A DNA stretch of 60,221 nucleotides from Candidatus Omnitrophota bacterium (GCA_903860135.1 CAIOPG010000012.1:1-60221), one strand, 5' to 3'; numbered from the stretch's first letter, positions 19,923-59,926 are shown. Program-made: numbers and translations. The notes: generated from the sequence alone by a model not told the origin.

Positions 19923-19967
19923 CCATGAAGGTCATGGATCCTTTCTTATGCCTATGGCCGAGATATT

Positions 19968-23076: not shown

Positions 23077-23080
23077 GTCG

Positions 23081-24927: not shown

Positions 24928-24940
24928 GGGGTATTACCTG

Positions 24941-26122: not shown

Positions 26123-26132
26123 AAGGTATCTT

Positions 26133-27101: not shown

Positions 27102-27112
27102 TTCATTAAAGG

Positions 27113-29367: not shown

Positions 29368-29393
29368 GTAATGGTGTGTTCACGCTTGAGGCC

Positions 29394-32533: not shown

Positions 32534-32567
32534 CTTTTATTAACATTATTTCTTTTGAGCCATTGAC

Positions 32568-33458
32568 ATGACCTTTGAAAATCCTGCTTTAAGAATTAAG
32601 AATTTACAGGACATTATTTGTTGTCCTGTTTGTAAGAACAGCCTGACTTTTGATGGTAATTCTCTTTGGTGTGCGCCTTGCGGGTTGGCGTACACGATCA
32701 CGGAGGGGATCCCTGACCTTGTTGTTCATGATCTTGAATATTGCGACCAAATACGGGTGGAATGCGAGACGGATTTCTTTAGTTCTCAATTTGGACAACG
32801 GAATGGTTATCAGGTGTATGCCCTGGATGAGTATCCGCGTATCCTTGACGCCATGCAGTTAGGGCATAACAATAACAATGACCGGAAGAAAGTATTAAGC
32901 ATTGGTTGTGCCTCGGGGGTATTTGAACGTGAGTTAATGAAGCGGAATTATCAGGTTGTCGGTGTTGATCTTGTAACGAGTTTACTGCAAAGGTGTGAAT
33001 TCTTAACCGTGCGCGCGGATGCCGTGAGTTTACCGTTTATCATGAATGCCTTTGATCATGTGATCTGTATCGGTGTTTTGCATCATGTGCCGGAGGCCTT
33101 GCATGCCAAGGCGTTGCGCGAGATCCTGCGGGTTTTAAAGCCTGGGCAAACAGCGCATTTCTTTGAACCCAATGCTACAACCCGTAGCGCGATAACGCAT
33201 CCAGCCTCGCAGTTCCTTAAGGCCAGGACATTAATTGAAAAGCCTATTTCTTTGCCGGCCTTCCAGCGGCTGGCAACAGCGCTTTTCTCGAAGGTGAATG
33301 TGTCTTATATAAAAGAAGTCAAACTCGTGAATTTACATAAAATGTATACTTTTTTATATCAGGTTGTTAAAATGATTTTCGATTGTATCCCGGGAACTAA
33401 CAACAAAGAATTCTTTGTTTTAATAGCGCATAAACAGCGCTCTATGACTGGCGGTTGA
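32568..33458 (+). CDS. Trm112-like zinc-ribbon fused to class I SAM-dependent methyltransferase
   Basis: CPVCKNSL...CAPCGLAYTITEGIPDLV (Trm112/YbaR-like), then VLSIGCASGVFE (motif I) and VICIGVLHHV. Confidence 0.75.
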   Translation: MTFENPALRIKNLQDIICCPVCKNSLTFDGNSLWCAPCGLAYTITEGIPDLVVHDLEYCDQIRVECETDFFSSQFGQRNGYQVYALDEYPRILDAMQLGHNNNNDRKKVLSIGCASGVFERELMKRNYQVVGVDLVTSLLQRCEFLTVRADAVSLPFIMNAFDHVICIGVLHHVPEALHAKALREILRVLKPGQTAHFFEPNATTRSAITHPASQFLKARTLIEKPISLPAFQRLATALFSKVNVSYIKEVKLVNLHKMYTFLYQVVKMIFDCIPGTNNKEFFVLIAHKQRSMTGG

Positions 33459-33464
33459 TTTTTT

Positions 33465-34895
33465 ATGGCAAAGATGATTTTCGTTCAAGATGTCGCGTTT
33501 GAAGCTTTTGGTGTGGAATATTTATCTGCTTATGTGAAATCAAAAGGTCATACGGTTGATCTGATCATCCTGAACCAGGAAAAGAACAATTTCAATCCGG
33601 TAGCCTATTTGGCGGATCAAAAGCCTGATGTTGTCGGTTTTTCGATAACGACCATTGATCATCAGTGGTCAACGGCATTGGCGAAGAAAATTAGACAGGA
33701 AGAAAGGCTTGCTGGTACACTCGTTATTTTCGGCGGAGCGCATCCCACCATGTCTCCGTCCATGATCGAAGATGACGGGGTCGATATGATTTGTGTGGGC
33801 GAGGGGGAGTATGCCCTGGCTGAACTTTTGGACCATATCGATAAAGGTGTCCGCGATCACTCCACGATCAAGAATATTTATGTCAAAAAAGACGGGCATG
33901 TTTTCAAGAATGAATTAAGGCCTTTAATCGAGAACTACGATCTGCTGCCTTTTCCTGACAGGGATATTTATTTCAAATATCCTATTTTAAGGGATATGAC
34001 CACGAAAAAATTCTTTTCAGCCAGGGGTTGCCCTTACCACTGTACTTATTGCAATAATCACTATTATCAGAAGTTATTTGCGGGGTTGGGTAAATATGTT
34101 GTTTATCGCCGCCCGGAGCACGTCATTGAAGAAATTAAGTACGTCCGGCAGAAGTACGGATTTAAACATGTTTATCTCGCAGCTGAGACGGTTACAACCA
34201 ATCACCCATGGTTAAAGAAGTTCCTTGAATTATACAAGAAAGAAATAGCAGTTCCCTTCTCTTGTTTATCAAGAGTGAATGAACTTGATGAAGATATCAT
34301 TAAAAATCTGGCTGATGCCGGGTGTTATTTCACATCTTTCGGGCTTGAAAGCGGCAGTGATCGCCTCAGGAATGGCTTGCTTAAGCGTGGAATGTCGCGA
34401 GAGAAATTGCTTGAGGTTGCAGCCTTATTGCATAAATATAAAATCAAGTTCCTGGTGCACCAGATTTTTGCGTTGCCGACAGAAACGATTGAGGAAGCAT
34501 TTGAGACTGTCCATATGTGTGTGCGCATGAAGGCCGATTCAACGTGGAGCACTATTTTTCAACCGTATAAAGGGACCGAGATCTATCAGTATTGTAAAAC
34601 GAACAATTTGCTTGTATCAGAAGAAGTGTCTGAAAATGTGAATAGTTTATATGCGCAGAGCACGCTTAAACAGCCGCATATAAAAGAAATATCGAATTTG
34701 CAAAAACTTGTGTTGATCTGCCTTAAATGCCCGGTAGCCATACCTTTAATCAGAGCCGCCATCAAGCTACCCAATAATATATTCTTTGAATTTATATCTA
34801 AGATCAATATGTTGATCAGTTTCAGGTTAAGGTATCGCCTTGGGTATGTTGAAATGCTGGGGATGTATTTGCGTTCCAAGAAACGTTTCGGTTGA
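33465..34895 (+). CDS. B12-binding-domain radical SAM protein (paralogue 3)
   Basis: DVVGFSITT and IFGGAHPT (B12-binding-type), with the SARGCPYHCTYC cluster. Confidence 0.8.
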   Translation: MAKMIFVQDVAFEAFGVEYLSAYVKSKGHTVDLIILNQEKNNFNPVAYLADQKPDVVGFSITTIDHQWSTALAKKIRQEERLAGTLVIFGGAHPTMSPSMIEDDGVDMICVGEGEYALAELLDHIDKGVRDHSTIKNIYVKKDGHVFKNELRPLIENYDLLPFPDRDIYFKYPILRDMTTKKFFSARGCPYHCTYCNNHYYQKLFAGLGKYVVYRRPEHVIEEIKYVRQKYGFKHVYLAAETVTTNHPWLKKFLELYKKEIAVPFSCLSRVNELDEDIIKNLADAGCYFTSFGLESGSDRLRNGLLKRGMSREKLLEVAALLHKYKIKFLVHQIFALPTETIEEAFETVHMCVRMKADSTWSTIFQPYKGTEIYQYCKTNNLLVSEEVSENVNSLYAQSTLKQPHIKEISNLQKLVLICLKCPVAIPLIRAAIKLPNNIFFEFISKINMLISFRLRYRLGYVEMLGMYLRSKKRFG

Positions 34896-34945
34896 GCAAC
34901 GCCGTTCATTTGAAAATCCAGTGTTAAATCAAGTGTTAAACTTTC

Positions 34946-34974
34946 TTGACGACTCTGGGGTGATAATATATATT
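34946..34974 (+). promoter_or_regulatory. sigma70-like promoter for tRNA-Gly
   Basis: TTGACG (34946-34951), 17-nt spacer, TATATT (34969-34974). The tRNA starts 26 nt downstream. Confidence 0.45.
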
Positions 34975-34999
34975 CATCTGTCTACCTGATTGCTGTTAT

Positions 35000-35073
35000 G
35001 CGAGAGTAGTTCAGTGGTAGAACCTTAGCCTTCCAAGCTGATGACGCCGGTTCGATTCCGACCTCTCGCTCCA
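35000..35073 (+). tRNA. tRNA-Gly (anticodon UCC)
   Basis: Manual fold. Acceptor GCGAGAG/CTCTCGC, D arm GTTC-AGTGGTA-GAAC, anticodon arm TTAGC-CTTCCAA-GCTGA. T arm GCCGG-TTCGATT-CCGAC has one C-A mismatch. CCA is encoded. Confidence 0.85.
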
Positions 35074-35088
35074 TTTTACTGGAATTAA

Positions 35089-35793
35089 ATGAAAATCACC
35101 TTATTGATCCCCACATTGAATGAAGAGACCGGCATGCGTTCTGTCATGCCGCGTGTGGACACGTCCCTTTTTGAGCAGATACTTGTGGTCGACGGGAACT
35201 CTAAAGATAATACGGTCGCTGTGGCACGCAAGATGGGCTATGATGTCGTATTGCAGAAAAGTCCCGGCATCCGCGGGGCGTACATGGATGCCCTGCCGTT
35301 TGTCAGGGGGGAGGCGGTGCTTACCTTTAGTCCTGACGGGAATTCTATCCCCGAGCTGCTCAAGCCTTGTATCGCCAAGTTTGAAGAAGGGTACGATATG
35401 GTGATCGTTTCGCGTTATGCCCAAGGGGCACGCAGTTACGATGATGATGCCGTTACGGCTTTCGGGAACTGGTTGTTTACAGCGAGCATCAATCTTTTTC
35501 ATGGCGGTAAATACACCGATGCCATGGTCATTTACCGCATTTATCGCAAAAGCCTTATCGAGCAACTGGCGCTGGATCAGGATGCGAGCTACGCGTTTGA
35601 AGAAAAACTTTTTCGGACAAATGTCAGTTGGGAACCATTGCTGTCTATTCGCGCCGCCCGTCACAAGCTTAAGGTCGCCGAGATCCCTGGCGATGAGCCT
35701 GCGCGTGATGGTGGCGAACGCAAACTGCAGGTCCTTAAATGGGGTGCCGCGTATTACTGGCAGATCCTGCGGGAAATATTTATCCGTCTATGA
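35089..35793 (+). CDS. GT2 glycosyltransferase (CsbB/GtrB/Dpm1-like polyprenyl-phosphate sugar synthase candidate)
   Basis: LLIPTLNEE, ILVVDGNSKDNT, TFSPDGN (DxD-equivalent). Short soluble GT2 of the lipid-carrier-charging type. Confidence 0.7.
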   Translation: MKITLLIPTLNEETGMRSVMPRVDTSLFEQILVVDGNSKDNTVAVARKMGYDVVLQKSPGIRGAYMDALPFVRGEAVLTFSPDGNSIPELLKPCIAKFEEGYDMVIVSRYAQGARSYDDDAVTAFGNWLFTASINLFHGGKYTDAMVIYRIYRKSLIEQLALDQDASYAFEEKLFRTNVSWEPLLSIRAARHKLKVAEIPGDEPARDGGERKLQVLKWGAAYYWQILREIFIRL

Positions 35794-36791
35794 CAAAACA
35801 GCCCATGGTTATTTCAGTGATTGGTGATGGCGGCTGGGGAACCACGCTAGCGGTTCTTTTGGCGGAGAAAGGGTATGCTGTATGCCTTTGGGGTGCGTTT
35901 GCTGACTATTCGGCAAAGGTGAGTTCAACCCGCATTAATGAAAAATTTTTGCCTGGTATCCGTATTCCGGATCAGGTTTATGTGACGTCAGATCTCAAAG
36001 AGGCGATTGAGCACAGTGAATTGATCGTGTTGGCGGTGCCCTCACAATACCTTGCCGCGACACTGGGGGACATCCGTAAATGTGATTATCAAGGCAAGTC
36101 ATTTGTCAGCGTGGTCAAAGGGATCGATACGCAGACATTCTTGACCATGAGCCAGCTGATCAACAAGGAGCTTGGTAAGGTTCCTATAGCTGTACTTTCC
36201 GGCCCGACGATTGCGATCGAGGTGGCCCGGAAGATCCCCACAACAGCGGTATCAGCGTCTGTTGATGCGCTTCTTGCCAGGCAGGTGCAGGCGGTGTTCA
36301 GCAGTCCTACTTTTCGTGTTTATACCAATCGTGATGTGATGGGGGTCGAGATCTGTGGCAGCGTCAAGAATGTTATTGCTTTGGCGTGTGGCATTTGTGA
36401 TGGCTTGGGTTTTGGTACGAATACCAAAGCGGCCTTGTTGACCCGCGGGCTTGTTGAAATGACACGTTTGGGTAAGATTTTGGGTGCCAAGCCAGGGACC
36501 TTTACCGGGTTGGCTGGCCTTGGTGATCTTGCCACAACGTGCTTTAGCCCTAACAGCCGCAATCGTTTTGTGGGCAACGAACTGGGCAAGGGGCGTTCCA
36601 TCAAGGACATTCTTTCTTCGATGGATGCGGTGGCTGAGGGTGTTGTTACTGCCAAGGCCGTACATGATCTTGCCAGAAAACTCAACGTTGATATGCCCAT
36701 AACAGAAGCTGTTTATGAGGTGGTCTACGGTCATGGTGATCCTCGTAAAGCAGTGGCCGGTCTTATGGGCCGTGCCTTGAAATCCGAATGA
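35790..36791 (+). CDS. gpsA: NAD(P)H-dependent glycerol-3-phosphate dehydrogenase
   Basis: VIGDGGWGTTLA dinucleotide fold, GVEICGSVKNVIA and GLGDL motifs. The ATG at 35790 overlaps the upstream stop (ATGA). Confidence 0.9.
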   Translation: MTKQPMVISVIGDGGWGTTLAVLLAEKGYAVCLWGAFADYSAKVSSTRINEKFLPGIRIPDQVYVTSDLKEAIEHSELIVLAVPSQYLAATLGDIRKCDYQGKSFVSVVKGIDTQTFLTMSQLINKELGKVPIAVLSGPTIAIEVARKIPTTAVSASVDALLARQVQAVFSSPTFRVYTNRDVMGVEICGSVKNVIALACGICDGLGFGTNTKAALLTRGLVEMTRLGKILGAKPGTFTGLAGLGDLATTCFSPNSRNRFVGNELGKGRSIKDILSSMDAVAEGVVTAKAVHDLARKLNVDMPITEAVYEVVYGHGDPRKAVAGLMGRALKSE

Positions 36792-38944
36792 TCAAGATTT
36801 TTTCTACACCTATACGTCGTGAATTTATTTTCTTTGTTATTTTTCCTTTCTTTGTCTGGATGTTCGCTTTTTGGGGTTATCTTTCAGGTCAGCGATCGCT
36901 TGTGGTTGATGCTGTTTCGTATTACGAGCATATCGGCTTTTTTACTGATAATATTATTCGCGGTGTTTATCCGCTGTGGGAACCGTCCTGGTGCGATGGT
37001 TCTCCGTATAATTTCTTCCTGCGCCGTATCGGTGAGGCCAATCCCTTTTACTGGATTCCGGCAGTCCTGAAATTAATCGGCGTTCCCCAGGTGCATGCGT
37101 ATCTTGGCTTCCTTGCATTTTATTACTTCTTGGCCTTGACGGCTTTTTGGCTTATCGCACGTCTTTTGTTTGAGGATCGGCTTACAGCTGCGGGCGCATT
37201 TCTATTGCTGCTTTTCTCGGGGTGGGGAACCCAGCTTTTCTTTAATTACATTATTATTATTTTTGTTCCGCTGGTCTGGTTTTTTTATTTTCTTTTTGCT
37301 TTCTTCAGGGAAGGCAAGAAACATCAGTTCATCGGATGTTTTTTCACACTGGCGCTGGCACTCACAACGTATATTCCTTTCTTCTTCCTGACGATTGCCG
37401 GTTTATTTGTCCTTATGTTTGCCGTAATCTTTTATAAAGATGTCCTGCCTTCCTTCAAACAACTCCTTGGTTTTGTACGTCAGAACAAGTGCCTGGCTTT
37501 CTTATGTATATTATTCATTGCGGTGGCATGTTTACCTGCCGCGGATTTTTATCATGAATCAAAGAAGGGGGAATTTGTCCTGCCTGGCCGTCATGCCGAG
37601 ACGGATAGTTCTCCGGTTGTTGCTGTTGCCCTCAAGAGTGTTGTTGTTGGTGATCTTCTGGCCCAGGGATATTTCGACCGTACATTCATGGATCATGCCA
37701 GCCTTATCAGGGGAGAGTTTTTCATTTCCTATTTCTTTTTTCTGGCCTGCCTGATGACGTTCATTACTCCTTTGACGCGCAGAACAGGCTTTTTATTGAT
37801 CAATATTGTTATTTTGGGTTTGATCTCTTTGACCGAGGCCTCGCCTCTTTACAAGTTTCTTTACGACCATCTTTTCTTTTTTCGTATTATGCGGATGGTG
37901 TCTTATTTCTTCTGGTTGGCTGTATTACCGATGGCCGTCATTTTGGTCATGGATCAGGTGCGTGCGTTCATCAAGGATTATACTGGGCGTCGTCCGGTTT
38001 TATTTTTCGTTATCGCAGGGCACATTGCTTTTGCTGTCTGGGCATTGACACGTGAAGGCGCGGTGTGGACATCCGGGGTTGCTATCGTGTGTTCATTGAT
38101 TTTTTTTACGGCCATTCTGCTGGGGTGCCGGAACAAGAATTTTCTGCTTGTTGTTTTGATGCTGGGTGTTATTGTTCAGCCGTTTCAGCTAGCCGGATAT
38201 GTGGTGGGCAACGGAGAAATCCGGCGTGGCGAGATCGGACGGTATGATCCGTCTGTCCCCCGGGCTTTTGTGTACGGGCGGCCGTTTGTGCCATCGACGC
38301 ATGCGGCGCACAAGGATCCTTTTATCAGAAGCATCCAGGACGGGCTTTATTATGCCACGTCCTGGTTCGCTGATGTCTTCACACATGTTCCATCTGAAGA
38401 CAGGCTTGCGTTTACAGCCAATAAGCTATATCTCATCGATTCTACGGTTGCCTATGATGCGCCCGATGCGGCTTTCTATGGCCGCCTTGCGACGGCCTGG
38501 CGCGGTCAGATGAATGTCGCTTACCTCGCAAGGGCTGAAGTTTCTCCCGGCGCATTACGGCTTTCTTCGGGTACACCATCCAAAGCTGAACCTGTCGGAC
38601 CCGATCATCCCTATGTCAAAGTCCGTGCTTTTGATGTGAACACCGTGCGCTTAACAACTCAACTGGACCGCCCTCGATTCCTTTTATGGAATGACGGTTA
38701 TCATTCCGGTTGGCATGTTTATATTAACGGGCATGATGATCGTGTCTTGCGGGCTGATCATGCTTTTAAAGGCGTTTGGCTTCCAGCTGGTAAAAGTGAT
38801 GTGCTTTTTCGTTTTGCGACGCCCTGGCGCTATGCGGCGGGGTACGGACTTATTCTTCTTTTTGCTATCATTTTTGGTGTTGTTGTTTCTTATGCACGGC
38901 GTGAAGGTTTCTTGATCACCGGGGAGTGCTCCGATGGACAATAG
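36788..38944 (+). CDS. large polytopic membrane protein, YfhO-like GT-C glycosyltransferase candidate
   Basis: DAVSYYEHIGFFTDNIIRGVYPLWEPSWCDGSPY resembles the YfhO N-terminal loop motif. About 14 hydrophobic segments, a ~200-aa extracytoplasmic domain, and a terminal TM. Confidence 0.5.
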   Translation: MIKIFSTPIRREFIFFVIFPFFVWMFAFWGYLSGQRSLVVDAVSYYEHIGFFTDNIIRGVYPLWEPSWCDGSPYNFFLRRIGEANPFYWIPAVLKLIGVPQVHAYLGFLAFYYFLALTAFWLIARLLFEDRLTAAGAFLLLLFSGWGTQLFFNYIIIIFVPLVWFFYFLFAFFREGKKHQFIGCFFTLALALTTYIPFFFLTIAGLFVLMFAVIFYKDVLPSFKQLLGFVRQNKCLAFLCILFIAVACLPAADFYHESKKGEFVLPGRHAETDSSPVVAVALKSVVVGDLLAQGYFDRTFMDHASLIRGEFFISYFFFLACLMTFITPLTRRTGFLLINIVILGLISLTEASPLYKFLYDHLFFFRIMRMVSYFFWLAVLPMAVILVMDQVRAFIKDYTGRRPVLFFVIAGHIAFAVWALTREGAVWTSGVAIVCSLIFFTAILLGCRNKNFLLVVLMLGVIVQPFQLAGYVVGNGEIRRGEIGRYDPSVPRAFVYGRPFVPSTHAAHKDPFIRSIQDGLYYATSWFADVFTHVPSEDRLAFTANKLYLIDSTVAYDAPDAAFYGRLATAWRGQMNVAYLARAEVSPGALRLSSGTPSKAEPVGPDHPYVKVRAFDVNTVRLTTQLDRPRFLLWNDGYHSGWHVYINGHDDRVLRADHAFKGVWLPAGKSDVLFRFATPWRYAAGYGLILLFAIIFGVVVSYARREGFLITGECSDGQ

Positions 38945-39860
38945 AAAAATACTCCCTGCCATGCGATGGATATTTTCAAGGGTAGGTTTTGTTTATATTG
39001 GTTTGTTTGTTGGGCTGGCTTTTATTGTTGACGGCAAAGCGGCAGAATCGCGGGTTAAGATGCGGCGCCTAAATGATGCTAGGCCGCCCATGAACGAACT
39101 GGTGTCTTTGGCCAAAGGTGAAATTCAACCTAAGGACATCCATTGGAAACCATTGCGTCGATATTTTGAGCTTGTGCTGCGTTATATGCCTGACGAATGG
39201 ACAGCACGGATGTTTCAAGGCGTATGTGAGTATTATCAGGGTGATGCTGTCAAAGCACTCATTGATATGCGGTATTCAGCAGATGCGTTCCCCCCTCTTT
39301 TTTGGAATAGCTATAATGCGGCCATTCTGACTTTTCTGCAGGGGGATATGCACTTGACGCTTTTATACATTGAGCAGGCTATGCGGATGCCGCCGCAGGC
39401 CGCTGCCGTGGCGTTACGCTCATCTGTAATATACCGGCAGATCATGTCTTCGGGTAATTTTGATATTGATTCAGGTAAGAATATGGATTTAGCCCGTCAG
39501 GAATTGGCGTTCTTGAGTGTCGCCGCGTATTATTATGCCAAAGATTTTGCGCAATCTCGCACCTGCGCGATGCAGGTTATTGGTACGCCAGGCCGTGATG
39601 AAGCCAAAGAGCCGTTTTATTTTTATGCTGGTGTTGCCAGTCTTGCCTTGGGGGATACCGCCGGGGCGTTATCATTTTTGGGGCATTGCATCAAGTTAAG
39701 ATCCCGCAATCCGTTGGTTTATCGTTACGCAGGTGACATGCTATCTTCTGCCGGGAAGCTTGAAGAAGGGCATGAATGGCAGCGTACAGCGGATATTTTG
39801 CAGAAAGAAAATCCTTCGGGATTTCCTTATGCTGATCGTCTTCGGCTGAGATTTATGTGA
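38934..39860 (+). CDS. membrane-anchored TPR-like protein
   Basis: N-terminal TM segment (VGFVYIGLFVGLAFIV), then helical-repeat-like sequence (FYFYAGVASLALGDTAGALSFLGHCIKL...). Overlaps the upstream gene by 11 nt. Confidence 0.5.
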   Translation: MDNRKILPAMRWIFSRVGFVYIGLFVGLAFIVDGKAAESRVKMRRLNDARPPMNELVSLAKGEIQPKDIHWKPLRRYFELVLRYMPDEWTARMFQGVCEYYQGDAVKALIDMRYSADAFPPLFWNSYNAAILTFLQGDMHLTLLYIEQAMRMPPQAAAVALRSSVIYRQIMSSGNFDIDSGKNMDLARQELAFLSVAAYYYAKDFAQSRTCAMQVIGTPGRDEAKEPFYFYAGVASLALGDTAGALSFLGHCIKLRSRNPLVYRYAGDMLSSAGKLEEGHEWQRTADILQKENPSGFPYADRLRLRFM

Positions 39861-39944
39861 CCTAAAAATGTTTTTACGACATTTTGCTTTTCAAGTCGTT
39901 CATTTTCTGTATAATTAAAAGTCTTTATAAATAATATTTTTTAT

Positions 39945-40018
39945 CGGGGCGTAGCGCAGCTGGCTAGCGCACTTGAATGGGGTTCAAGAGGTCGTGGGTT
40001 CAAATCTCACCGCTCCGA
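39945..40018 (+). tRNA. tRNA-Pro (anticodon GGG)
   Basis: Manual fold. Acceptor CGGGGCG/CGCTCCG, D arm GCGC-AGCTGGCTA-GCGC, anticodon arm CTTGA-ATGGGGT-TCAAG, T arm GTGGG-TTCAAAT-CTCAC. CCA is not encoded. Confidence 0.85.
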
Positions 40019-40101
40019 TTTTATATTTAGTCTGGTTTCTTCAATTCGTATTATCGCGAAATAACGGCTAATGCACAATCCAGGTTTAAGGTAAAAGGAG
40101 G

Positions 40102-40485
40102 ATGTTCCCAATGTCTCCAGACAAGAAATCTGTGAATGAGCGCCGTTTATATGTACGCATTAACAAAAACTTCATTATCCGTTTCTGTCAGAAAGATAAT
40201 TCGATATTAAAATTTGAAGTTTCACAGATTGAAAATATCAGCCGCACGGGGATTTGCTTTACATCAAACAGCTTTTTGGAACCTGGGTGTAATATCTATT
40301 TAGAGCTTCGGACGCCGTATGTGACAGATATGATCTCCCTTGAAGGGCAAGTGCTGGATTCTCATGAGAAGGTAAAAGGCCTTATTTATCAAAATCGCTT
40401 GAAGTTTTTTAATATCTCTTCAGAAGCAGCCGATATCCTTGAAAAGATCGAGAATTATAATCATAACCGGACTGACTATCCATGA
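40102..40485 (+). CDS. PilZ domain protein (putative c-di-GMP receptor)
   Basis: RRLYVR (RxxxR) and NISRTGICF (D/NxSxxG) motifs at PilZ spacing. AGGAGG RBS. ATGA overlap with hom. Confidence 0.7.
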   Translation: MFPMSPDKKSVNERRLYVRINKNFIIRFCQKDNSILKFEVSQIENISRTGICFTSNSFLEPGCNIYLELRTPYVTDMISLEGQVLDSHEKVKGLIYQNRLKFFNISSEAADILEKIENYNHNRTDYP

Positions 40486-41777
40486 AAAACATTACAATCG
40501 GTCTTGTGGGCTTGGGGACGGTGGGGCGGGGTGTTGCGAAGCTTATTACAGCCAGACGTTCATTCGTTCAGGAAAAGTACGGTGTGGATCTCAGGCTGAA
40601 GGCTGTTTGCGATTTGCAGATCGATGCTAAATTCCTTAAGACGCTCGGCGGCGTTACCGCAGAGAAAGATTTCAACAAATTGATCAACGATCCTCAGATC
40701 GATGTGATTATTGAGCTTATCGGCGGCCTTCATCCGGCACTTGAGATCATCAAGGGGGCGCTTAATAATGGCAAGCATGTGGTCACTGCAAATAAGGCGG
40801 TGATCTCCACATTCGGTCAGGAACTTTTTAAACTGGCGCATGCCTGTGGCCGCAGTATTTATTTTGAGACGGCGGTGCTCGCTGGCGTGCCGATCATTAA
40901 AACGCTAACAGAAGGCCTGGCGGGCAATCATTACAACAGCTTGCATGGCATTGTTAACGGCACATGTAATTACATATTAAGTGAAATGGAGTCAACGGGC
41001 ATTTCTTTTGACCAGGCTGTGAAACTGGCTCAGGAGAAGGGCTATGCGGAAGCGGATCCTTCGCTTGACATTAATGGGAAAGATTCAGCCCATAAACTGG
41101 CTGTGCTGGTGATGCTCGCCATGGGCAAATTTGTGAAGGCTTCGGATATTTATACCGAAGGGATCACGCACATTGCCGCTGAAGACCTTCAGTATGCCCG
41201 CGAGATGGACCTGACGATCAAGTTGCTGGCGATCGCCAAGAAAAAAGAAGACGGGATCGAGGCCCGGGTTCACCCGACGCTGATCTCGAGGAAGAAATCC
41301 TTGGCTTCTGTCAACGGTGTTTATAATGCGGTGCTCCTGGAGGCTGATGTGCTCGGCGATGTCCTTCTTGTCGGGCAAGGGGCGGGGGCGATGGCTGCCG
41401 CTTCAGGTGTTTTTAGTGATCTGATCAATCTGGGCATTCATAATGCCGAGCGTGACCGTACCTGGATCGGTGATGACCCTAGGGAAACGACCAAGCTCAA
41501 ACTTCTTTCCATGGATAAGGTCCGTACTGATTTTTATATCCGTCTGATGGTCATTGACCGTCCGGGTGTTTTGTCGAAAATAACTGGGATCTTAGGGCAG
41601 TATGGGATCAGCATTGCTTCGCTCACCCAAAAAGCCGTCAGTCCCGGCGCTGCCGTACCATTGGTCATGCTCACGCATAATGCCCAGGAATCTGACGTCC
41701 GCAAGGCATTGGACAAGATCGGGAAACTCTCTGACATTAAGGCCAAGCCTGTTGTTATCCGGATGGAGCCTTTGTAA
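40482..41777 (+). CDS. hom: homoserine dehydrogenase
   Basis: [15 protein letters not shown]-binding start, central catalytic domain ([11 protein letters not shown]), and C-terminal ACT domain. Confidence 0.9.
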
Positions 41778-41778
41778 T

Positions 41779-42849
41779 ATGGCCGCCCAAGACCGTATGT
41801 ACCAGGGGTTGATCCATCGTTACCGGGCGTATCTTCCTGTTTCTGAGAAAACACCTGTTGTTTCCCTGAGTGAAGGCAATACGCCGCTCATTCATTCAGC
41901 TTGTTTGTCCGAGCGGACAGGGCTTGTGGTCTTTTTGAAATATGAGGGATTAAATCCTACGGGTTCTTTTAAGGATCGCGGGATGACCATGGCCATATCG
42001 AAGGCCGCCGAGAAAGGCGCTAAAGTAGTCATGTGCGCGTCGACGGGGAACACGTCCGCTTCGGCAGCGGCTTATGCCTCGCGGGCCGGGATGCGTTGCT
42101 GTGTGCTTATTCCTGACGGGAATATCGCCTTGGGAAAACTTGCCCAGGCCATGATCCATCAGGCCCAGGTGATCGCGATCGAGGGCAATTTCGACGATGC
42201 CTTGAATCTTGTCCGGGATGTCACGGCTAAATACCCCATTGAACTTGTGAATTCGATTAATCCTTACCGCATTGAAGGCCAAAAGACCGCTGCTTTTGAA
42301 GTGGTTGATGACCTCGGTGAGGCGCCGGTTTTTCATGCTATCCCTGTCGGTAACGCCGGGAATATCACGGCTTACTGGAAAGGTTATAAAGAGTACAAGA
42401 TCGCTGGCAAGTCTGTGCGTTTGCCCAAAATGCTCGGTTTTCAGGCGGCAGGATCGGCGCCGATCGTTCACAACAGGATCATCGAACATCCGGAAACGAT
42501 CGCCACGGCCATCAAGATCGGTAATCCTGCCAGCTGGGCATCGGCGGTAGCGGCACGCGATGAATCGGGCGGACTTATTGATAGCGTGACCGATGAAGAG
42601 ATCATGGCGGCGTATCAGTTACTGGCTGGTCGTGACGGGGTTTTTTGTGAGCCGGCGTCCGCGGCATCTGTGGCGGGGATATTGAAACTTGCGGCGGCGG
42701 GTTATTTTAAAAATGCTCAAGGAGGGACGGTTGTCTGCACCTTGACCGGACACGGGCTTAAGGATCCTTCGAATGCCATGAAGTGCGTCCAGCCGCCTGT
42801 TGTCGTTAAGGCGGACATTAATGCCATCCTCAAAGAAATTGGGCTTTAA
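41779..42849 (+). CDS. thrC: threonine synthase
   Basis: LSEGNTPL and [10 protein letters not shown] (PLP lysine). The ATG lies 1 nt after the hom stop. The track start at 41602 lies inside hom. Confidence 0.9.
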
Positions 42850-54237: not shown

Positions 54238-54872
54238 TCTATCCACGTGTAATTGAAAATCTTATTGAACAGCTGACCCGGTTGCCGGGTATCGGGCGGC
54301 GCAGTGCCGAGCGCATGGTATTTTTCCTGCTCAATGCCCCGATGGACAGCAGTCAGCGTCTGGCGCAGGGGATCATTGATCTGCGTGAAAAATTGCGCTT
54401 CTGCCGTATTTGCAATAATTTTACCGAGACGGAATTATGTTCGGTCTGCATGGATCCCGCCCGTGATAACGGGGTGATCTGTGTGGTGGAAACCCCGAAA
54501 GATGTGATCGCCATTGAAAAGACAGGCAGTTTCCACGGGCAGTATTTTGTGCTGTTGGGAACGATCGCTCCTTCCGAAGGGCGGGGGCCCGATGATATTG
54601 ATTTAAACAAATTGATCCGCCGTGTTGAAGACAGTGCCGGGGGGATCCATGAAATTGTCCTGGCCACGGATGCTGACCTGGAAGGTGAACTGACGGCCCT
54701 GCACCTGATAAAGGCATTGCAACCCTACGCCCTTAAAGTTTCACGCATCGGTGTGGGCTTGCCGGCAGGCGGTTCAGTGGAATTTGCTGATATTTCAACG
54801 CTCACCATGTCGTTCAATGCCCGCAGGGATGTGGCACCGCCCAAAGAAGTTTGCGCAGCGTCTATTCATTAA
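54234..54872 (+). CDS. recR: recombination protein RecR
   Basis: HhH LPGIGRRSAERM, C4 zinc finger CRICNNF...CSVC, and Toprim VICVVETPKDV...ATDADLEGE. Confidence 0.9.
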   Translation: MIYPRVIENLIEQLTRLPGIGRRSAERMVFFLLNAPMDSSQRLAQGIIDLREKLRFCRICNNFTETELCSVCMDPARDNGVICVVETPKDVIAIEKTGSFHGQYFVLLGTIAPSEGRGPDDIDLNKLIRRVEDSAGGIHEIVLATDADLEGELTALHLIKALQPYALKVSRIGVGLPAGGSVEFADISTLTMSFNARRDVAPPKEVCAASIH

Positions 54873-54886
54873 CCAGACAGGGATTT

Positions 54887-57517
54887 ATGCCGATAGAGAA
54901 AATCATCAAACGTAATGGGGACATTGTCGACTTTGACACCGAGCGCATTGCGCAAGCTGTAACGCGCGCGGTTCAGGCCACACAGGCGCAGTCCGCCCCG
55001 GGGACTGTGATTGACCTCAAATTTATCCCTACCCTTGTCGTCGACGTCAGGCAAGCGCTTGAAACTGAATTTGCCCATAGCGTACGTGTGCCCAGCATTG
55101 AGCACATCCAGGATATTGTCGAACACAAACTGGTCGAGGCCGGACAGTTCGAGGTGGCCAAGGCCTATATTCTGTACCGGGCCGCGCATGCCCGTCAGCG
55201 CGCCGAACGCCGTATTGAAGAATTGGCCAAGATCGAACGAGGCCTGCTCAAGGTCATCAAGCATACCGGCACGATCGAAGTATTCCGGGTGGAAAAGATC
55301 CGCGCCGCGTTTACCCGCGCTGCCAACGGATTCGAAGCCGCGTGCCCGTTTGAAGCGCTGTATGAACGGCTCAAGCTCATGGTCGTCGACCAGATGACAA
55401 CGGCGCAGATCATGAAGAATATGCGCAAGGTGTGCCTGGATCTTGTGACAGTCCAGAATATCCACTGGCAGAATATCGCCGGGCGCTTGTATATCATGGA
55501 CTTGTATAAACAGGCGTCGCGCAACCGCTCTATTCCCATCAGTGCGGTGTATTCACCCCAGGCATTCCGCGACCATGTCAGTCATTACATCAAGATCGGG
55601 CGTTACACCGCTGATTTTGAGAAATATTACACCGCGGAAGACATCCTCGCCGCAGGCCGCGCGCTCGACCAGGAACGGGACTTTACCTATATTTATTCGA
55701 CGGTACTGGCTTTTGACCGCCGTTACCTGCTCAATCCCAACAAGAATGTGCACGAATTGCCGCAGGAAATGTACATGACCATCGCGCTGTTCCTGGCGAT
55801 CCCTGAACCTGAAGCCCGGCGGCTTGAGATTGCCCTGAAGATCTATGCGGTCATCGCTTCCCAAAAACTGTCCCTGCCGACACCGACACTGCTCAACGCG
55901 CGCACGAATTTTCATCAGCTTTCCAGCTGTTTCAAATTGAATGTCAACGACGATCTCCGGGCTATTTATCATGCGCTTGAGAACATGGCGCAGATCTCGA
56001 AATTTGGCGGCGGGGTAGGGGTTTATCTGGGGCATATCCGTTCCAAGGGGGCCGCGATCCGGGGGCTCAACGGGTCTTCGGGCGGGGTTATCCCGTGGGT
56101 GCGCCTCATCAATAATACAGCGGCGGCGGTCAATCAGCTGGGCGCGCGGCTGGGGGCCATTTCCCCGACGCTGGACATCTGGCATCGCGATATCCTTGAT
56201 TTCCTGAACCTGCAGGTGGAGACCGGGGATATCCGCAGTAAGGCTTTCGATATTTTTCCGGCCATTGCTGTGCCTGACATTTTTATGCGCCGGGTCAAGG
56301 CGAACCAGGACTGGACCCTTTTTGATCCGCACGAGATATTTAAACACAAGGGCGTCCGCCTGGAAGACAGCTACGGCACGGCCTTTGATACACTGTACGA
56401 AGCTTGCGAGAAAGACCCCTCGATCAAGATACGCCTGAGCATGCCGGCCAAAGACCTGATGAAACGCTTCCTCAAGACGGTCGTTGAAACAGGTATGCCG
56501 TATGTGTTCTTCCGTGACACCGTCAATGAACAGAATCCCAACAAGCACGCCGGACGGGTGTATTCTTCCCAGCTTTGCACCGAGATCTGCCAGAATACTT
56601 CTGACAGCACCTTCGCGGGGGAGAAAGGCACCGGGGATCGTATTACCCTGGAATATATCCCCGGAGACACCGTTGTCTGCAACCTAGCGTCGATCAACAT
56701 GGCCAAAGTCCACACGGATGCCGAGATCAAAGAGATTTTCCCGATCGCCCTGCGCGTGCTCGATAATGTGATCACCCTGAATTTCTATCCGATCAAGGAA
56801 TCTGAACTGACGGCGAAGCGTTACCGCAGTGTCGGGCTGGGTTTTATGGGGCTGGCGGAATACCTGGCCTGCAACGGGCATACGTATGGCTCGGCTGAAG
56901 CGCGGGCACACGTCGACGGGCTTTTTGAGAAATATGCCTATGCCACCCTTGAGGCGTCCAATGCGCTGGCCCTGGAGCGCGGGGCGTATGAACTTTTTGA
57001 GGGCAGTGAATGGTCGAAGGGGATCCTTTTCGGCCATGACGCCGCCTGGTTCCGCGACAATTCCAAAGATTCAGCCCGCTGGTTGAACCTTATAGAAACC
57101 ATCAAGAAGACCGGTTTGCGTTTTGCCTATCATCTGGCACCGGCACCGAACACATCGACCGCATCTGTCGCCGGGACAACGGCGGGGCTTCTGCCGATCT
57201 ACAAGAAATTCTTTGTGGAGACCAATGTCATTGCGCCGGTGGTCACGGTGGCGCCAAATTTGTCGACCAGGAATTTCTGGTATTATACGGAATATGTCCA
57301 TATGGACATGAACGATGTCATCGAGATGATCGCGACGATTTATAAATGGATCGACCAGTCGATCTCTTTTGAATGGCTCATAAACCCGGCCAAAACATCG
57401 CCTGCCGAGCTTTATGCCTATTACATCAAGGCCTGGGAGATGAAGATCAAGACGGTCTATTACCTGCGCAGCATGAGCGGCGAGATCAAGGAAGATTGCG
57501 CCAGCTGCAGCGGTTGA
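54887..57517 (+). CDS. nrdA: class I ribonucleoside-diphosphate reductase alpha subunit with two N-terminal ATP-cone-like segments
   Basis: IIKRNGDIVDFDTERI (ATP-cone 1), VIKHTGTIEVFRVEKI (second cone-like), catalytic SQLCTEI and NLASIN, and a C-terminal CASC redox pair. Confidence 0.9.
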   Translation: MPIEKIIKRNGDIVDFDTERIAQAVTRAVQATQAQSAPGTVIDLKFIPTLVVDVRQALETEFAHSVRVPSIEHIQDIVEHKLVEAGQFEVAKAYILYRAAHARQRAERRIEELAKIERGLLKVIKHTGTIEVFRVEKIRAAFTRAANGFEAACPFEALYERLKLMVVDQMTTAQIMKNMRKVCLDLVTVQNIHWQNIAGRLYIMDLYKQASRNRSIPISAVYSPQAFRDHVSHYIKIGRYTADFEKYYTAEDILAAGRALDQERDFTYIYSTVLAFDRRYLLNPNKNVHELPQEMYMTIALFLAIPEPEARRLEIALKIYAVIASQKLSLPTPTLLNARTNFHQLSSCFKLNVNDDLRAIYHALENMAQISKFGGGVGVYLGHIRSKGAAIRGLNGSSGGVIPWVRLINNTAAAVNQLGARLGAISPTLDIWHRDILDFLNLQVETGDIRSKAFDIFPAIAVPDIFMRRVKANQDWTLFDPHEIFKHKGVRLEDSYGTAFDTLYEACEKDPSIKIRLSMPAKDLMKRFLKTVVETGMPYVFFRDTVNEQNPNKHAGRVYSSQLCTEICQNTSDSTFAGEKGTGDRITLEYIPGDTVVCNLASINMAKVHTDAEIKEIFPIALRVLDNVITLNFYPIKESELTAKRYRSVGLGFMGLAEYLACNGHTYGSAEARAHVDGLFEKYAYATLEASNALALERGAYELFEGSEWSKGILFGHDAAWFRDNSKDSARWLNLIETIKKTGLRFAYHLAPAPNTSTASVAGTTAGLLPIYKKFFVETNVIAPVVTVAPNLSTRNFWYYTEYVHMDMNDVIEMIATIYKWIDQSISFEWLINPAKTSPAELYAYYIKAWEMKIKTVYYLRSMSGEIKEDCASCSG

Positions 57518-57548
57518 ATCACATGTTGCCTATAAAGGACAGCGCGTT

Positions 57549-58577
57549 ATGAAAAAAAATCTGATCTTTAATCCCGACGGGAATGATACCCTTGAAGCCC
57601 GTGCGATCATCAAGGGGAATACGACGGGGCTTTTTAATCTCAACACGGTCCGTTACCCGTGGGCTAAAGCCATGTATCAATTGATGATCGGCAATTTCTG
57701 GGTGCCCGAGAAGGTGGGCGGTCTCGGCGAAGATGCCATCATGTACCGCAGTTTGTCGGCGCATGAACAGCGCGCGTACCGGGGGATGCTTTCGTTCTTG
57801 ATCTTTCTCGACAGTATCCAGACGGTGAACTTGCCGAACTTTTCCAATTACATCACCTCGCCCGAAGTGAACCTGCTCCTGTCGATCCAGTCCTACCAGG
57901 AGGCGATCCATTCGCAGAGCTATGCCACGATCCTGGAAACAGTCGTCGAGGCACGCGAACGCGACGAGATCTATTATTTCTGGCAGATCGATGAGGTCCT
58001 TAAGAAACGCAATGAATATATCGGAGAGATCTATCAGGCCTTTCAGGATGATCCGAGCGAAAAGAATTTTTTCCGCGCCCTGATCGGCAATTTCCTGCTC
58101 GAAAGCCTTTATTTCTACAATGGGTTTGCCTTTTTTGATAATCTTGTTTATGCCTCCAAGATGACCGCGACTGGCCGCATGATCAGCTATATCCGCCGCG
58201 ATGAACTGACGCATGTTGTCCTTTTCACCAATATCATCAAAGAGATCCGCCGTGAATTCCCGCATATCTATGATGAAAAAGTTGTCGTCGCCATGTTCAA
58301 GGTCGCCGTCGACCAGGAGATCATCTGGTCAGACCATATCATCGGCGACGGCATCCCCGGGATCACGAAGAAGACAACCAGCCTTTACACCCAATGGCTC
58401 GCCAATGCCCGTCTGGAAATGTTCGGCATCGCCCCTCTTTTCCCCGAGGCCACGATCAACCCGTACAAGCACCTGGAAAGCATGGCCGATAACAACAGCG
58501 AGAAAACGAATTTCTTCGAATCCACCGTCACCAATTACACCCAGTCCAGCTCCATGAACGGATCGTGGGATTTTTGA
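57549..58577 (+). CDS. nrdB: class I ribonucleotide reductase beta subunit
   Basis: Di-metal/radical-site motifs FLDSIQ, QEAIHSQSY (Tyr retained), ESLYFYNGF, and RDELTH. C-terminal acidic/aromatic tail ...GSWDF. Confidence 0.9.
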   Translation: MKKNLIFNPDGNDTLEARAIIKGNTTGLFNLNTVRYPWAKAMYQLMIGNFWVPEKVGGLGEDAIMYRSLSAHEQRAYRGMLSFLIFLDSIQTVNLPNFSNYITSPEVNLLLSIQSYQEAIHSQSYATILETVVEARERDEIYYFWQIDEVLKKRNEYIGEIYQAFQDDPSEKNFFRALIGNFLLESLYFYNGFAFFDNLVYASKMTATGRMISYIRRDELTHVVLFTNIIKEIRREFPHIYDEKVVVAMFKVAVDQEIIWSDHIIGDGIPGITKKTTSLYTQWLANARLEMFGIAPLFPEATINPYKHLESMADNNSEKTNFFESTVTNYTQSSSMNGSWDF

Positions 58578-58601
58578 TTTATATTTTAAATATTCTTTAT
58601 T

Positions 58602-58898
58602 ATGATTAAAGATAAACGCACCTATAAAGATCGTAAAGAATATTTGATCAAGGCCGTTTATGCCCGACGTAAGAAAGTCCGTGAAATGGCAATCTTATAT
58701 AAGGGAGGGAAATGTGAGAAGTGTGGATATAATCGTTGTATTGACGCATTGGAATTTCATCATATAGACCCTACACAGAAAGATTTTAATATTTCCAGCA
58801 AAGGATATACTCGTAGTTGGGAGCGAGTTAAGCTTGAACTTGATAAATGTACCATCCTATGTGCTAATTGTCATAGGGAAACGCATGTTAAAAGTTAA
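58602..58898 (+). CDS. small free-standing HNH endonuclease
   Basis: CEKCGY...LEFHHIDP..K...CANCHRETH (HNH with flanking Cys pairs). GC is visibly lower: hand counts give 33-40% in two 60-nt lines, against 57% in a neighbouring nrdB line. Confidence 0.8.
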   Translation: MIKDKRTYKDRKEYLIKAVYARRKKVREMAILYKGGKCEKCGYNRCIDALEFHHIDPTQKDFNISSKGYTRSWERVKLELDKCTILCANCHRETHVKS

Positions 58899-58936
58899 TA
58901 GCCTGAAATTCTTTCGAAATTCTTTCTTTCTGTTTG

Positions 58937-58964
58937 TTGACAAGATTGAGAATATCAGTATAAT
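58937..58964 (+). promoter_or_regulatory. consensus sigma70-type promoter upstream of tRNA-Asn
   Basis: TTGACA (58937-58942), 16-nt spacer, TATAAT (58959-58964). The tRNA 5' end is 50 nt downstream. Confidence 0.6.
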
Positions 58965-59013: not shown

Positions 59014-59401
59014 TCCCCTGTAGCTCAGTTGGTAGAGCATGTGGCTGTTCACGAGTTCCGACGAATGTCGGAACGAGTGTCCTGAGAAATATTGGCGAAA
59101 GCGAATATCTCAGAAGGTGATTAATATAAGCAATCACCCTAAAGACACTTTAGTTAGCAGCCTCTGGCAGAAATGCCGGAGTGAAAAGCGGGCTAAGTCA
59201 GGAAAAGCCAGAAAATATTTCTGGTCAATCCTGAGCTAGCATCCATCACCGAAAGGTCATGGAGGGCAAGTGCAGAGACTTTACACCCGCCGCCTAAAAT
59301 CAAAACATTTGATCATGGCGAAGAGAAAGTCCGACTCTCCGAGTAATCGGAGTCAGAAAGTAACCACAGTGTCCGAGGTTCGAGCCCTCGCGGGGGAGCC
59401 A
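59014..59401 (+). tRNA. tRNA-Asn (anticodon GUU) interrupted in the anticodon loop by a group I intron
   Basis: Exon 1 (59014-59048): TCCCCTG TA GCTC AGTTGGTA GAGC A TGTGG CTGT. Exon 2 (59361-59401): TAA CCACA GTGTC CGAGG TTCGAGC CCTCG CGGGGGA G CCA. Joined, they form a canonical cloverleaf with anticodon GTT. Confidence 0.8.
59049..59360 (+). ncRNA. group I (IC3-like) self-splicing intron
   Basis: The 5' exon ends in U and the intron ends in G. There are multiple capped hairpins (59055-59074, 59082-59113, 59116-59138). Core-like strings ATCCTGAGCTAGC (59228-59240) and GTGCAGAGACT (59270-59280) resemble, from memory, the cyanobacterial tRNA-Leu and Azoarcus tRNA-Ile intron cores. Boundaries are +/-1 nt because of the T ambiguity. 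Confidence 0.7.
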
Positions 59402-59926
59402 ATGTGGACGGTTGGGCGAAATCCCACCGTTCCCGTTTAACGCCTCGTCGGAAGCAATTCCGGCGGGGCGTTTTTCGTTTATAGGCACCGCTTCGTTGAG
59501 GGCTTCCTTGACGTGCGGTGGTATCGTGTCGGCGATGTATTGGTCGACAAACATGTTGATCTGGAGTTTGTCGTCAAATATCGCGATGTCTTTGATAAGG
59601 GCGCGTATAAGGCCTTTCTGGGCGTCTGGCGGTGCCTTATCGATGTGTTCCATGGCGAAGCGCAGGTTCTGGTGCAGGAATTCACCGGAGTGCGCGGTTA
59701 TTTGAGTTGCTGATTTTTCTGCCTGTAATTTCCCCAGTTTATCTTCCAGCCTTGTTATCTCGGTTTCCAATTCAGTCATTTTTGTTTTATAGGTCACGCC
59801 TTCGGATATTCCTTTGGTGATGGCGAGGTCGATGAGGTTTTGTGCCTGTTTGCGGAATTCCTGCAGGCGGTTTTCAACCAAGGTGATCTGTTCTTCGATC
59901 TGCTTAAGGAGAGCGTTTGATTCGAA
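59402..59926 (-). pseudogene. 3' remnant of a large serine recombinase gene (coiled-coil and C-terminal region only)
   Basis: The minus-strand frame reads ...NALLKQIEEQITLVENRLQEFRKQAQNLIDLA...ELETEITRLEDKLGKLQAE...APPDAQKGLIRALIKDIAIFDDKLQINMFV. This matches the coiled-coil plus 'ekr.llr.li.kI.v.dd.i.I' tail of large serine recombinases. There is no catalytic N-terminal domain: the frame runs upstream straight into the tandem repeats and downstream into tRNA exon 2 without a stop. Confidence 0.45.

Follow-up and report, generated by a model that had tools for sequence, protein, structure and literature searches.

A tRNA-Asn gene split by a group I intron and flanked by a free-standing HNH gene in a Candidatus Omnitrophota bacterium

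In a stretch of DNA of 60,221 nucleotides (nt) from a Candidatus Omnitrophota bacterium (GCA_903860135.1, CAIOPG010000012.1:1-60221; hereafter the window), a tRNA-Asn(GUU) gene at 59014..59401 is interrupted in its anticodon loop by a group I intron, and a small gene for an HNH endonuclease stands alone a short distance upstream. We consider it probable that this locus combines a functional intron of the Asn.4Ug type, without an open reading frame (ORF) of its own, with a free-standing HNH endonuclease that would act in trans on uninterrupted tRNA-Asn alleles. The evidence comes from the intact tRNA exons and ribozyme core, from relatives that carry the homologous HNH gene inside the intron, and from the recurrent linkage of this gene to tRNA-Asn.

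The split tRNA-Asn gene and its ribozyme

The features of the locus are as follows.

58602..58898, + strand: free-standing HNH endonuclease gene, 98 amino acids (aa), homologue of the ORFs in the P1 loop of relatives' introns
58937..58964, + strand: sigma-70-type promoter of the tRNA gene, TTGACA-16-TATAAT, 12/12 consensus positions (consensus match only)
59014..59048, + strand: tRNA-Asn exon 1, tRNA positions 1-35, last base U35 = U-1
59049..59360, + strand: group I intron of 312 nt with a compact, IC3-like core, without ORF (RF00028, ARAGORN -i, covariation)
59360..59360, + strand: omega-G, final intron nucleotide, invariant in the alignment of relatives
59361..59401, + strand: tRNA-Asn exon 2, tRNA positions 36-76, CCA encoded
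59439..59482, + strand: intrinsic terminator-like hairpin of 15 pairs plus a T run, 38 nt past the tRNA

A first-pass annotation, made from the sequence alone, had proposed that the two exon halves join into a perfect cloverleaf with the anticodon GTT. ARAGORN in intron mode bears this out. It calls a split tRNA-Asn with a 312-nt intron, and the joined exons (59014..59048 and 59361..59401) form a 76-nt tRNA-Asn(GTT) with a perfect cloverleaf, comprising a 7-bp acceptor stem (one G.U pair), regular D, anticodon and T arms, the discriminator G and an encoded CCA. The exons are identical to those of related species. In default mode ARAGORN missed the split gene and called only a tRNA-Gly and a tRNA-Pro, and this default run over the whole 60-kb window gave no other tRNA-Asn gene.

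The annotation had also placed a U at the end of exon 1 and a G at the end of the 312-nt insert, and we could both confirm and refine this. Among the equivalent placements of the insert, only U59048/G59360 provides U-1 together with omega-G; therefore the splice falls at CUGU/UAA, between anticodon bases 35 and 36 and not after 36. The exon junction after splicing reads GTGGCTGTTAACCACA. An archaeal-type protein-spliced intron was also considered and dismissed, given the complete group I core and a splice site that is not at the canonical position 37/38.

The insert matches the Rfam family RF00028 (Intron_gpI) at 59112..59353 with 61.2 bits against a gathering score of 50 (model positions 1-253, E = 4e-13 for the whole window). 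This search had been proposed as a check by the annotation, and its result, together with covariation in 34 relatives, upholds the reading of a tRNA-Asn(GUU) with a group I intron in the anticodon loop. The two core strings quoted there are present, GTGCAGAGACT at 59270 and ATCCTGAGCTAGC at 59228, and their stated near-identity to the strings of the cyanobacterial tRNA-Leu(UAA) and Azoarcus tRNA-Ile introns agreed with our comparison of AAUCCUGAGC, GCAGAGACU and AGUCC with IC3 introns. The whole precursor is far more stable than shuffled sequence (z = -7.4). In its minimum-energy fold, GGCUGU (59043..59048), the final six bases of exon 1 and the 5' strand of P1, pairs with GCAGCC (59157..59162), closing P1 over a 108-nt insert. 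The elements of the intron are the following.

59050..59079, + strand: L1 hairpin 1 (CACGAG...CGAGUG), at the 5' end of the P1 loop, conserved in ORF-bearing and ORF-less relatives
59080..59153, + strand: remaining L1 insert with hairpins at 59080..59117 and 59116..59138, sitting where relatives have the HNH ORF
59157..59162, + strand: internal guide sequence GCAGCC (P1 3' strand), whose first G wobble-pairs with U-1 (minimum-energy fold)
59163..59180, + strand: P2 hairpin with GAAA loop, 7/7 pairs with compensatory changes
59188..59192 with 59286..59290, + strand: P3, 3/5 pairs compensatory, enclosing P4, P5, P6/P6a and the P7 5' strand
59198..59203 with 59229..59234, + strand: P4, invariant
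59207..59225, + strand: P5, covaries
59235..59271, + strand: P6/P6a, P6 invariant, P6a with 7/7 pairs compensatory
59275..59280, + strand: P7 5' strand, invariant
59291..59320, + strand: P8 hairpin, 3/4 basal pairs compensatory, CCUAAA...CAUGG tetraloop-receptor-like by eye only
59328..59332, + strand: P7 3' strand AGUCC, completing the P3/P7 pseudoknot, invariant in 34 sequences
59337..59352, + strand: P9 hairpin with GUAA loop, 5/6 pairs compensatory, 100% of cells paired

Helices P2 to P9 were placed by hand on the window sequence, and the placement was then carried over to 34 aligned relatives of the window type. As controls, the 3' partners were slid by 1-3 columns, and the columns were shuffled 500 times. 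Standard pairs occupy 91.5% of the helix cells, compared with 33-47% when the partners are slid, and sliding lowers the covariation score from 0.526 to 0.08-0.13; no observed measure was reached in any of the 500 column shuffles. This covariation analysis (the annotation had suggested one against IC3 alignments) found P2, P3, P5, P6a, P8 and P9 to be heavily compensatory. P4, P6 and P7 are invariant and hence carry no covariation information, yet they match the universal core. Covariation of P1 is uninformative: its exon strand, in the Asn anticodon loop, is invariant, and the variable flanking position is without compensation. The window copy retains every core helix, all invariant core nucleotides, both GNRA loops and omega-G. 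Its helix inventory is compatible with subgroup IC3, whose compact core lacks P2.1, P5abc and P7.1/7.2, as are the GAAA of L2 and the GUAA of L9. In IC3 introns these GNRA loops would dock into P8 and P5; the receptor likeness of P8 is judged by eye, and the subgroup assignment is tentative. These results support the insert as a structurally intact IC3-like group I ribozyme.

The unusual part of the intron is the domain within the P1 loop. The 105-nt segment 59049..59153 folds at -40.4 kcal/mol (z = -7.5), and in an isolated fold a 7-bp stem reaching back to about 59075 encloses both later hairpins. Such a compact fold would bring the splice site near the guide sequence. Hairpin 1 precedes the ORF in ORF-bearing relatives; across about 17 relatives the base of this hairpin is conserved, and the distal stem differs in length and sequence with complementarity kept. 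The CACGAG/CGAGUG base implies tandem G.A pairs flanked by C-G pairs and might serve in protein binding, in a tertiary contact or in translation control. Hairpins 2-4 of the loop gave no sign of being a decayed ORF remnant or a repeated mini-element: the rest of the insert does not detectably resemble the HNH ORF, occurs only once in the window and matches no Rfam family. This remainder may be either a remodelled remnant or a later insertion. Similar hairpin modules of the form UCCUGAG...GAAGGA make up peripheral inserts in L1 of the window (59080..59117), in P5 of loci L052, L055 and L007 and in P8 of L036, L038 and L027, and they could represent a small mobile or structural RNA module.

The intron family and its HNH gene

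A survey of about 80,000 genomes with Rfam and ARAGORN raised the four classic tRNA/intron combinations to 21 (Williams 2020, bioRxiv 10.1101/2020.01.27.920355), and the seed alignment of that preprint includes an entry 'Pam37.Asn.4Ug', denoting tRNA-Asn, loop position 4, U-1 and omega-G. The window intron, in a tRNA-Asn(GUU) with the splice CUGU/UAA, U-1 and omega-G, fits this definition. The first-pass annotation was right to place an Asn(GUU) host outside the four classic cases; the combination itself had already been catalogued as Asn.4Ug, a class with 111 members in our collection. The split tRNA-Asn is a new member of this catalogued class, and its host tRNA is not unprecedented. Otherwise, our literature searches on group I introns in tRNA-Asn led mostly to organelle papers, and the 'introns' of 22-49 nt described in other tRNAs (PMC5733544) are irrelevant to the tRNA-Asn intron.

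By an exact-pattern scan with the two core strings, over one genome per GTDB species, we obtained 49 loci, mostly from Omnitrophota. The distinct Asn.4Ug-type members collected from public genomes number 111 and are spread across many phyla. Their lengths define three classes.

Short class: intron 186-225 nt, guide sequence 7-15 nt from the 5' splice site, that is, an ordinary P1 hairpin
Intermediate class, including the window: intron 230-353 nt, guide sequence 28-121 nt from the 5' splice site (108 in the window)
Long class: intron 490-631 nt, guide sequence 300-380 nt from the 5' splice site

Conservation of U-1, omega-G and the guide sequence extends over the 111 members, and GCAGC[C/U] is kept in about 100 of them, whatever its distance from the splice site. 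Two core subtypes exist, the compact type of the window and a type with an extra hairpin after P7, to which Pam37 and about half of the members belong. When 50,697 phage records were searched by blastn with the complete element, no match was returned.

Going by the ARAGORN labels, the family would also reside in tRNA-Thr, tRNA-Tyr and tRNA-Ser. We rejected this interpretation, as the acceptor stems, the discriminator base and U-1/omega-G are all those of tRNA-Asn. The mislabelled relatives have an Asn body (U1...A72, discriminator G), often with exons identical to those of the window, and all relatives permit the splice GGCUGU/...G/UAAC, which is the sole omega-G-compatible option for the 'CGT' cases. 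From these comparisons, the intron family is essentially specific to tRNA-Asn(GUU). The intron mode of ARAGORN shifts the boundary, and many split tRNA-Asn genes among L004-L132 (e.g. L005, L021 and L048) are labelled Thr(CGT/TGT), Tyr, Ser, Phe or Asp.

Most members of the family contain in the P1 loop an ORF for an HNH endonuclease of about 98 aa, which in the long introns spans about 95-105 codons. The 3' end of this ORF abuts or overlaps the 3' strand of P1, for example as ...AAA AGU UAG CAG CC in L015, L032, L053 and L055. In L018, L045 and L058, the HNH frame runs past the guide sequence through P1 and P2 into P3 and the ribozyme core, and therefore translation and ribozyme folding would compete. 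The statement of the annotation that there is no room for a homing endonuclease ORF holds for the window intron itself; it does not extend to the relatives, which hold an HNH ORF in the P1 loop, nor to the locus, where an intact homologue lies upstream.

This free-standing gene is located between the stop codon of nrdB (58577) and the tRNA promoter, and its own stop codon precedes exon 1 by 115 nt and the intron insertion site by about 150 nt. Its DNA homology to the intron-borne copies covers 58600..58904, and the protein is 78% identical to the intron ORF of L015 over all 98 residues. Beyond the gene, the 3' flank TAATAGCC resembles the guide sequence TAGCAGCC, a short likeness. HNH-endonuclease families of PHROG match the protein with E = 2e-30 and 5.5e-26, the Pfam family PF01844 (HNH) reaches 18.9 bits against a cut-off of 21.4, NCBIfam gives no match, and the best match among solved structures is the HNH domain of McrA (E = 0.003). 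The zinc and catalytic motifs are intact (C38xxC41, H53-H54, C86xxC89-H90 with N88 between the cysteines, and H94), as expected of a beta-beta-alpha-metal motif between two pairs of zinc ligands; these residues are conserved in 12 aligned relatives, and they line up with those of the motif in McrA.

By scanning the genome collection with a back-translated query we identified 205 HNH relatives. Among the best 80 of these, about 67 have the ORF inside a split tRNA-Asn, in the P1 loop, and the rest lie mostly beside tRNA-Asn.

In most of the Omnitrophota relatives, across dozens of species, recR lies directly upstream of tRNA-Asn. The synteny dnaX-recR-tRNA-Asn is conserved, and therefore the tRNA-Asn of the window is a resident chromosomal gene. 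The closest relatives by RecR are L056 and L054 (76% identical, the next being 69.5%), and both have the order recR, HNH gene, TTGACA...TATAAT promoter and tRNA-Asn with an ORF-less intron. Of these three, only the window has nrdA-nrdB (54851..58577) between recR and the HNH gene, which suggests that a ribonucleotide reductase operon was inserted in the window's lineage. The HNH proteins of the window, L056 and L054 are about 85% identical, their RecR proteins about 76%. Nonsynonymous divergence (dN) of the HNH genes is 0.09-0.12, synonymous divergence (dS) is saturated, and their ratio is about 0.06 where computable; on these values, the free-standing gene is maintained by purifying selection and not decaying.

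In a neighbour-joining tree, the HNH sequences of the window, L054 and L056 fall inside a group of intron-borne copies from Omnitrophota, and the other free-standing copies (L111, L126, L124, L094 and L121) are scattered among intron-borne ones. In L111 and L126, which represent lineages unrelated to that of the window, the free-standing HNH gene again lies beside a tRNA-Asn with an ORF-less intron. Thus the layout of an ORF-less intron with a free-standing HNH gene within co-conversion distance is found in L056, L054, L111, L126 and the viral locus L260 as well as in the window. The simplest reading of the tree, as we infer it, is that the HNH gene repeatedly left the intron and settled next to the tRNA gene. 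In the bacterial metagenome-assembled genome of L121, an intact HNH gene (3001..~3310) sits 11 nt upstream of an uninterrupted tRNA-Asn (3321..3393), whose anticodon arm is GACTGTTAATC and not GGCTGTTAACC.

Viruses carry the HNH gene as well. Contigs of IMG/VR contain 96 HNH relatives, none inside an intron; they are sited in phage arrays of tRNA genes. Of 53 distinct viral loci, 25 have tRNA-Asn(GTT) as the nearest tRNA gene within 300 nt, compared with an expectation of 10.7%, the Asn share of the tRNAs in those viral loci (binomial p = 3e-11). Among viral homologues that share 59% or more identity with the window protein, tRNA-Asn is the nearest tRNA in 19 of 27. At the viral locus L260, the HNH gene abuts a tRNA-Asn with a 206-nt intron (split by ARAGORN, with core strings that match IC3 seeds), which Rfam does not call at the gathering score. 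In cultured phages, the homologues are annotated only as 'HNH endonuclease'. In Aeromonas phage LAh_6 (L334, NC_048774.1), 15 nt separate the end of an unannotated tRNA-Asn from the HNH gene that follows it, and the 12-tRNA array around this gene is unannotated and partly overlaid by coding sequences for a 'hypothetical protein'. In Acinetobacter phage Aci05 (L333, NC_048080.1), tRNA 3'-half fragments come after the HNH gene, together with a degenerate anticodon arm that is Asn-like, and the downstream tRNA is labelled 'tRNA-Val-GTT'. These loci constitute an annotation problem: the split genes are missed by ARAGORN in default mode and many are mislabelled in intron mode, and RefSeq phage records omit the neighbouring tRNA arrays.

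Proposed working and rival explanations

Splicing in vivo, like the nuclease activity and the target site of the HNH protein, is something we infer from sequence. The tRNA gene would be transcribed from its own promoter. GGCUGU at the end of the exon and the guide GCAGCC would form P1, their strands being brought together by the self-contained 108-nt hairpin domain. An exogenous G would then attack after U-1, omega-G would dock, and the exons would be ligated into mature tRNA-Asn. These ribozyme steps are those of the established group I mechanism, and the evidence for them here is the fold. The HNH gene would have been lost from the intron in the window's lineage and would survive as the free-standing gene upstream of the tRNA. 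Its product would nick or cut uninterrupted tRNA-Asn alleles at or near the putative target GGCTGTTAACC, and during repair the HNH gene would be copied jointly with the intron linked to it, as collaborative or trans homing. The intron splits the target site, so the host's own tRNA-Asn would be protected.

We propose for the HNH protein a role in homing at the DNA level because its gene is tightly linked to tRNA-Asn, recurrently and in three architectures. Uninterrupted alleles with the exact exons of the window occur, among the matches listed, in Planctomycetota, Spirochaetota and a few Omnitrophota, and therefore potential targets are available. The spliced reading GGCTGTTAACC is found in 92 of the 111 intron-bearing genes versus 3 of 26 uninterrupted phage tRNA-Asn genes beside a free-standing HNH gene. 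Most of these 26 genes differ from GGCTGTTAACC at the pair closing the anticodon stem. This contrast is compatible with target-site immunity and is confounded by the AT-richness of phages.

Several observations weigh against trans homing by this pair. HNH homologues also stand beside uninterrupted tRNA-Asn genes, in L121 and in many phages, and three of the 26 phage genes carry the putative target. The HNH protein has only 98 aa, which is small for a sequence-specific homing enzyme, and it scores below the Pfam HNH cut-off. L056 and L054 lack the guide-sequence-like motif past the stop codon of the HNH gene, and we treat this motif as weak evidence. The neighbour-joining tree is without support values, and the direction of movement, into or out of the intron, is not secure. 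As for the ribozyme, P1 lies beyond a covariation check owing to its invariant exon strand, and the 108-nt insert in its loop might slow folding. Both splicing and expression of the tRNA are predictions, and a second, uninterrupted tRNA-Asn gene may exist outside the 60-kb window.

Alternatively, the gene would be a pseudogene with a dead intron, its exons never joined and another tRNA-Asn gene serving the cell. We consider this highly improbable. The joining of the exons is predicted from sequence, a further tRNA-Asn gene could lie elsewhere in the genome, and the insert in the P1 loop is unusual; against this, the exons are perfect and the same as in related species, all core helices and invariant nucleotides are intact, the gene has a consensus promoter and a terminator, the recR-linked site is conserved in dozens of species, and the window holds no other tRNA-Asn. 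A functional intron might instead be accompanied by an HNH protein unrelated to its mobility, which could be a maturase, a nuclease excluding incoming DNA, or a purely selfish, free-standing homing gene with its target elsewhere. We regard this as unlikely, with arguments on both sides. In the three species the HNH protein is more conserved than RecR and dN is well below dS, which is unusual for a purely selfish chromosomal gene, and in phages the homologues also lie beside uninterrupted tRNA-Asn and other tRNAs. However, the tight linkage of HNH and tRNA-Asn recurs in independent lineages and three architectures, and such linkage is important for co-conversion at the DNA level but irrelevant to a maturase free to diffuse; moreover, our literature searches found no precedent for an HNH maturase.

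The history of the gene could also have run in reverse, with a free-standing HNH gene beside an ORF-less intron as the ancestral state (the Bonocora-Shub pathway), the P1 loop invaded later, and the window representing the precursor stage. The abundance of free-standing homologues in phages is in keeping with this order of events. We nevertheless judge it quite unlikely, given that the sequences of the window, L054 and L056 nest among the intron-borne copies of Omnitrophota while the other free-standing cases sit at scattered tips, that the window intron keeps the L1 hairpin 1 which flanks the ORF in ORF-bearing relatives, and that the DNA homology of the free-standing gene extends a few bases into the guide-sequence-like motif. 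A more speculative idea, to which we give little weight, is that the HNH protein is an exclusion nuclease against incoming uninterrupted tRNA-Asn DNA, such as phage tRNA arrays, with the intron as the immunity determinant, or that the family is a natural series of movements. If the former were true, the pair of homing endonuclease and ribozyme would go beyond a selfish element and work as a module akin to toxin/antidote or defence systems. In the milder version, a series of more than 100 members would record repeated moves of the HNH gene among three positions: within the intron, next to it, and next to a tRNA gene that has no intron. Loss of the HNH gene from the intron, followed by trans homing from its present site, is the reading we favour.

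Neighbouring features and comparison with known systems

An ORF on the - strand (59300..59881, 193 aa, coiled-coil-like) runs with its last ~34 codons antisense through P9 and exon 2, and it has no Pfam match above the cut-off. In relatives, an ORF of 547-549 aa takes its place (3647..5290 in L056), likewise running into the 3' end of the tRNA. The copy on one relative's contig has Resolvase, Recombinase and Zn_ribbon_recom domains, which mark it as a large serine recombinase. It looks as if tRNA-Asn served as an integration site and the window copy of the recombinase ORF were truncated. Farther away, a c-di-GMP-I riboswitch aptamer (RF01051) lies at 23161..23252 on the - strand (75.9 bits against a gathering score of 35). 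The G+C fraction is 0.41-0.49 across ~16000..42000 versus 0.52-0.54 on both sides, and this low-GC stretch, which contains the tRNA-Gly (35000) and the tRNA-Pro (39944), may be an acquired island.

The split tRNA alone leaves the known range of group I intron sites unchanged. The significance of the locus is that one homologous HNH gene occurs in three settings: in the P1 loop of an intron, beside an ORF-less intron, and beside an uninterrupted phage tRNA-Asn. The family is a rich natural data set on the long-standing question of how self-splicing introns and homing-endonuclease genes come together and separate, for which the earlier basis was a few phage examples.

With the IC3 introns of cyanobacterial tRNA-Leu(UAA) and Azoarcus tRNA-Ile(CAU), the window intron shares the compact core of ~200 nt with helices P2 to P9, the site in the anticodon loop, the GNRA loops on P2 and P9 and the near-identical core strings AAUCCUGAGC, GCAGAGACU and AGUCC. 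It differs from them in its host tRNA, in its splice at 35/36 as opposed to 34/35 or 36/37, and in the 108-nt structured insert in the P1 loop, where the wider family has the HNH gene. Another tRNA intron enzyme, I-Ssp6803I of the Synechocystis tRNA-fMet intron, is of the PD-(D/E)XK type, not HNH. That intron (Bonocora & Shub 2001, cited in PMC3984707) belongs to a bacterial tRNA intron family with an endonuclease aimed at the anticodon region, as proposed here; it resides in another tRNA, and the account of it describes no free-standing form beside an ORF-less intron. The seed Pam37 has the same host tRNA, insertion at CUGU/UAA, U-1 and omega-G, and it also has ...uagcagcc..., equal to the guide motif of the window, at some distance from the splice site. 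In contrast to the window core, Pam37 has an extra hairpin between P7 and P3', and the accessible part of the Williams preprint does not describe an HNH ORF.

For endonuclease genes among tRNA genes, as with the viral homologues of the window HNH gene, there are precedents in phages: SegB of T4, which prefers a site within T2L's tRNA-Asn gene (PMC2330249), and F-TflI/II/IV of T5 are homing nucleases in tRNA clusters. SegB, however, belongs to the GIY-YIG enzymes and recognises the region of the T-loop, and the SegB and T5 systems involve no intron. Closest in arrangement are collaborative homing (Zeng, Bonocora and Shub), described for the psbA intron of cyanophage S-PM2 with F-CphI, and trans homing, described for T4 MobE with the nrdB intron and its defunct I-TevIII (PMC2790892, PMC3984707, PMC6083498). 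In these systems too, an intron without a working endonuclease gene adjoins a free-standing one, and the close linkage allows co-conversion. In our limited literature searches, an ORF-less intron with a free-standing endonuclease was described only for phage protein-coding genes. The locus, as read from its sequence, is an example of that arrangement in a bacterial chromosomal tRNA gene, with cleavage as a predicted step, and it differs further in that sister species hold clear homologues of its free-standing gene within their introns.

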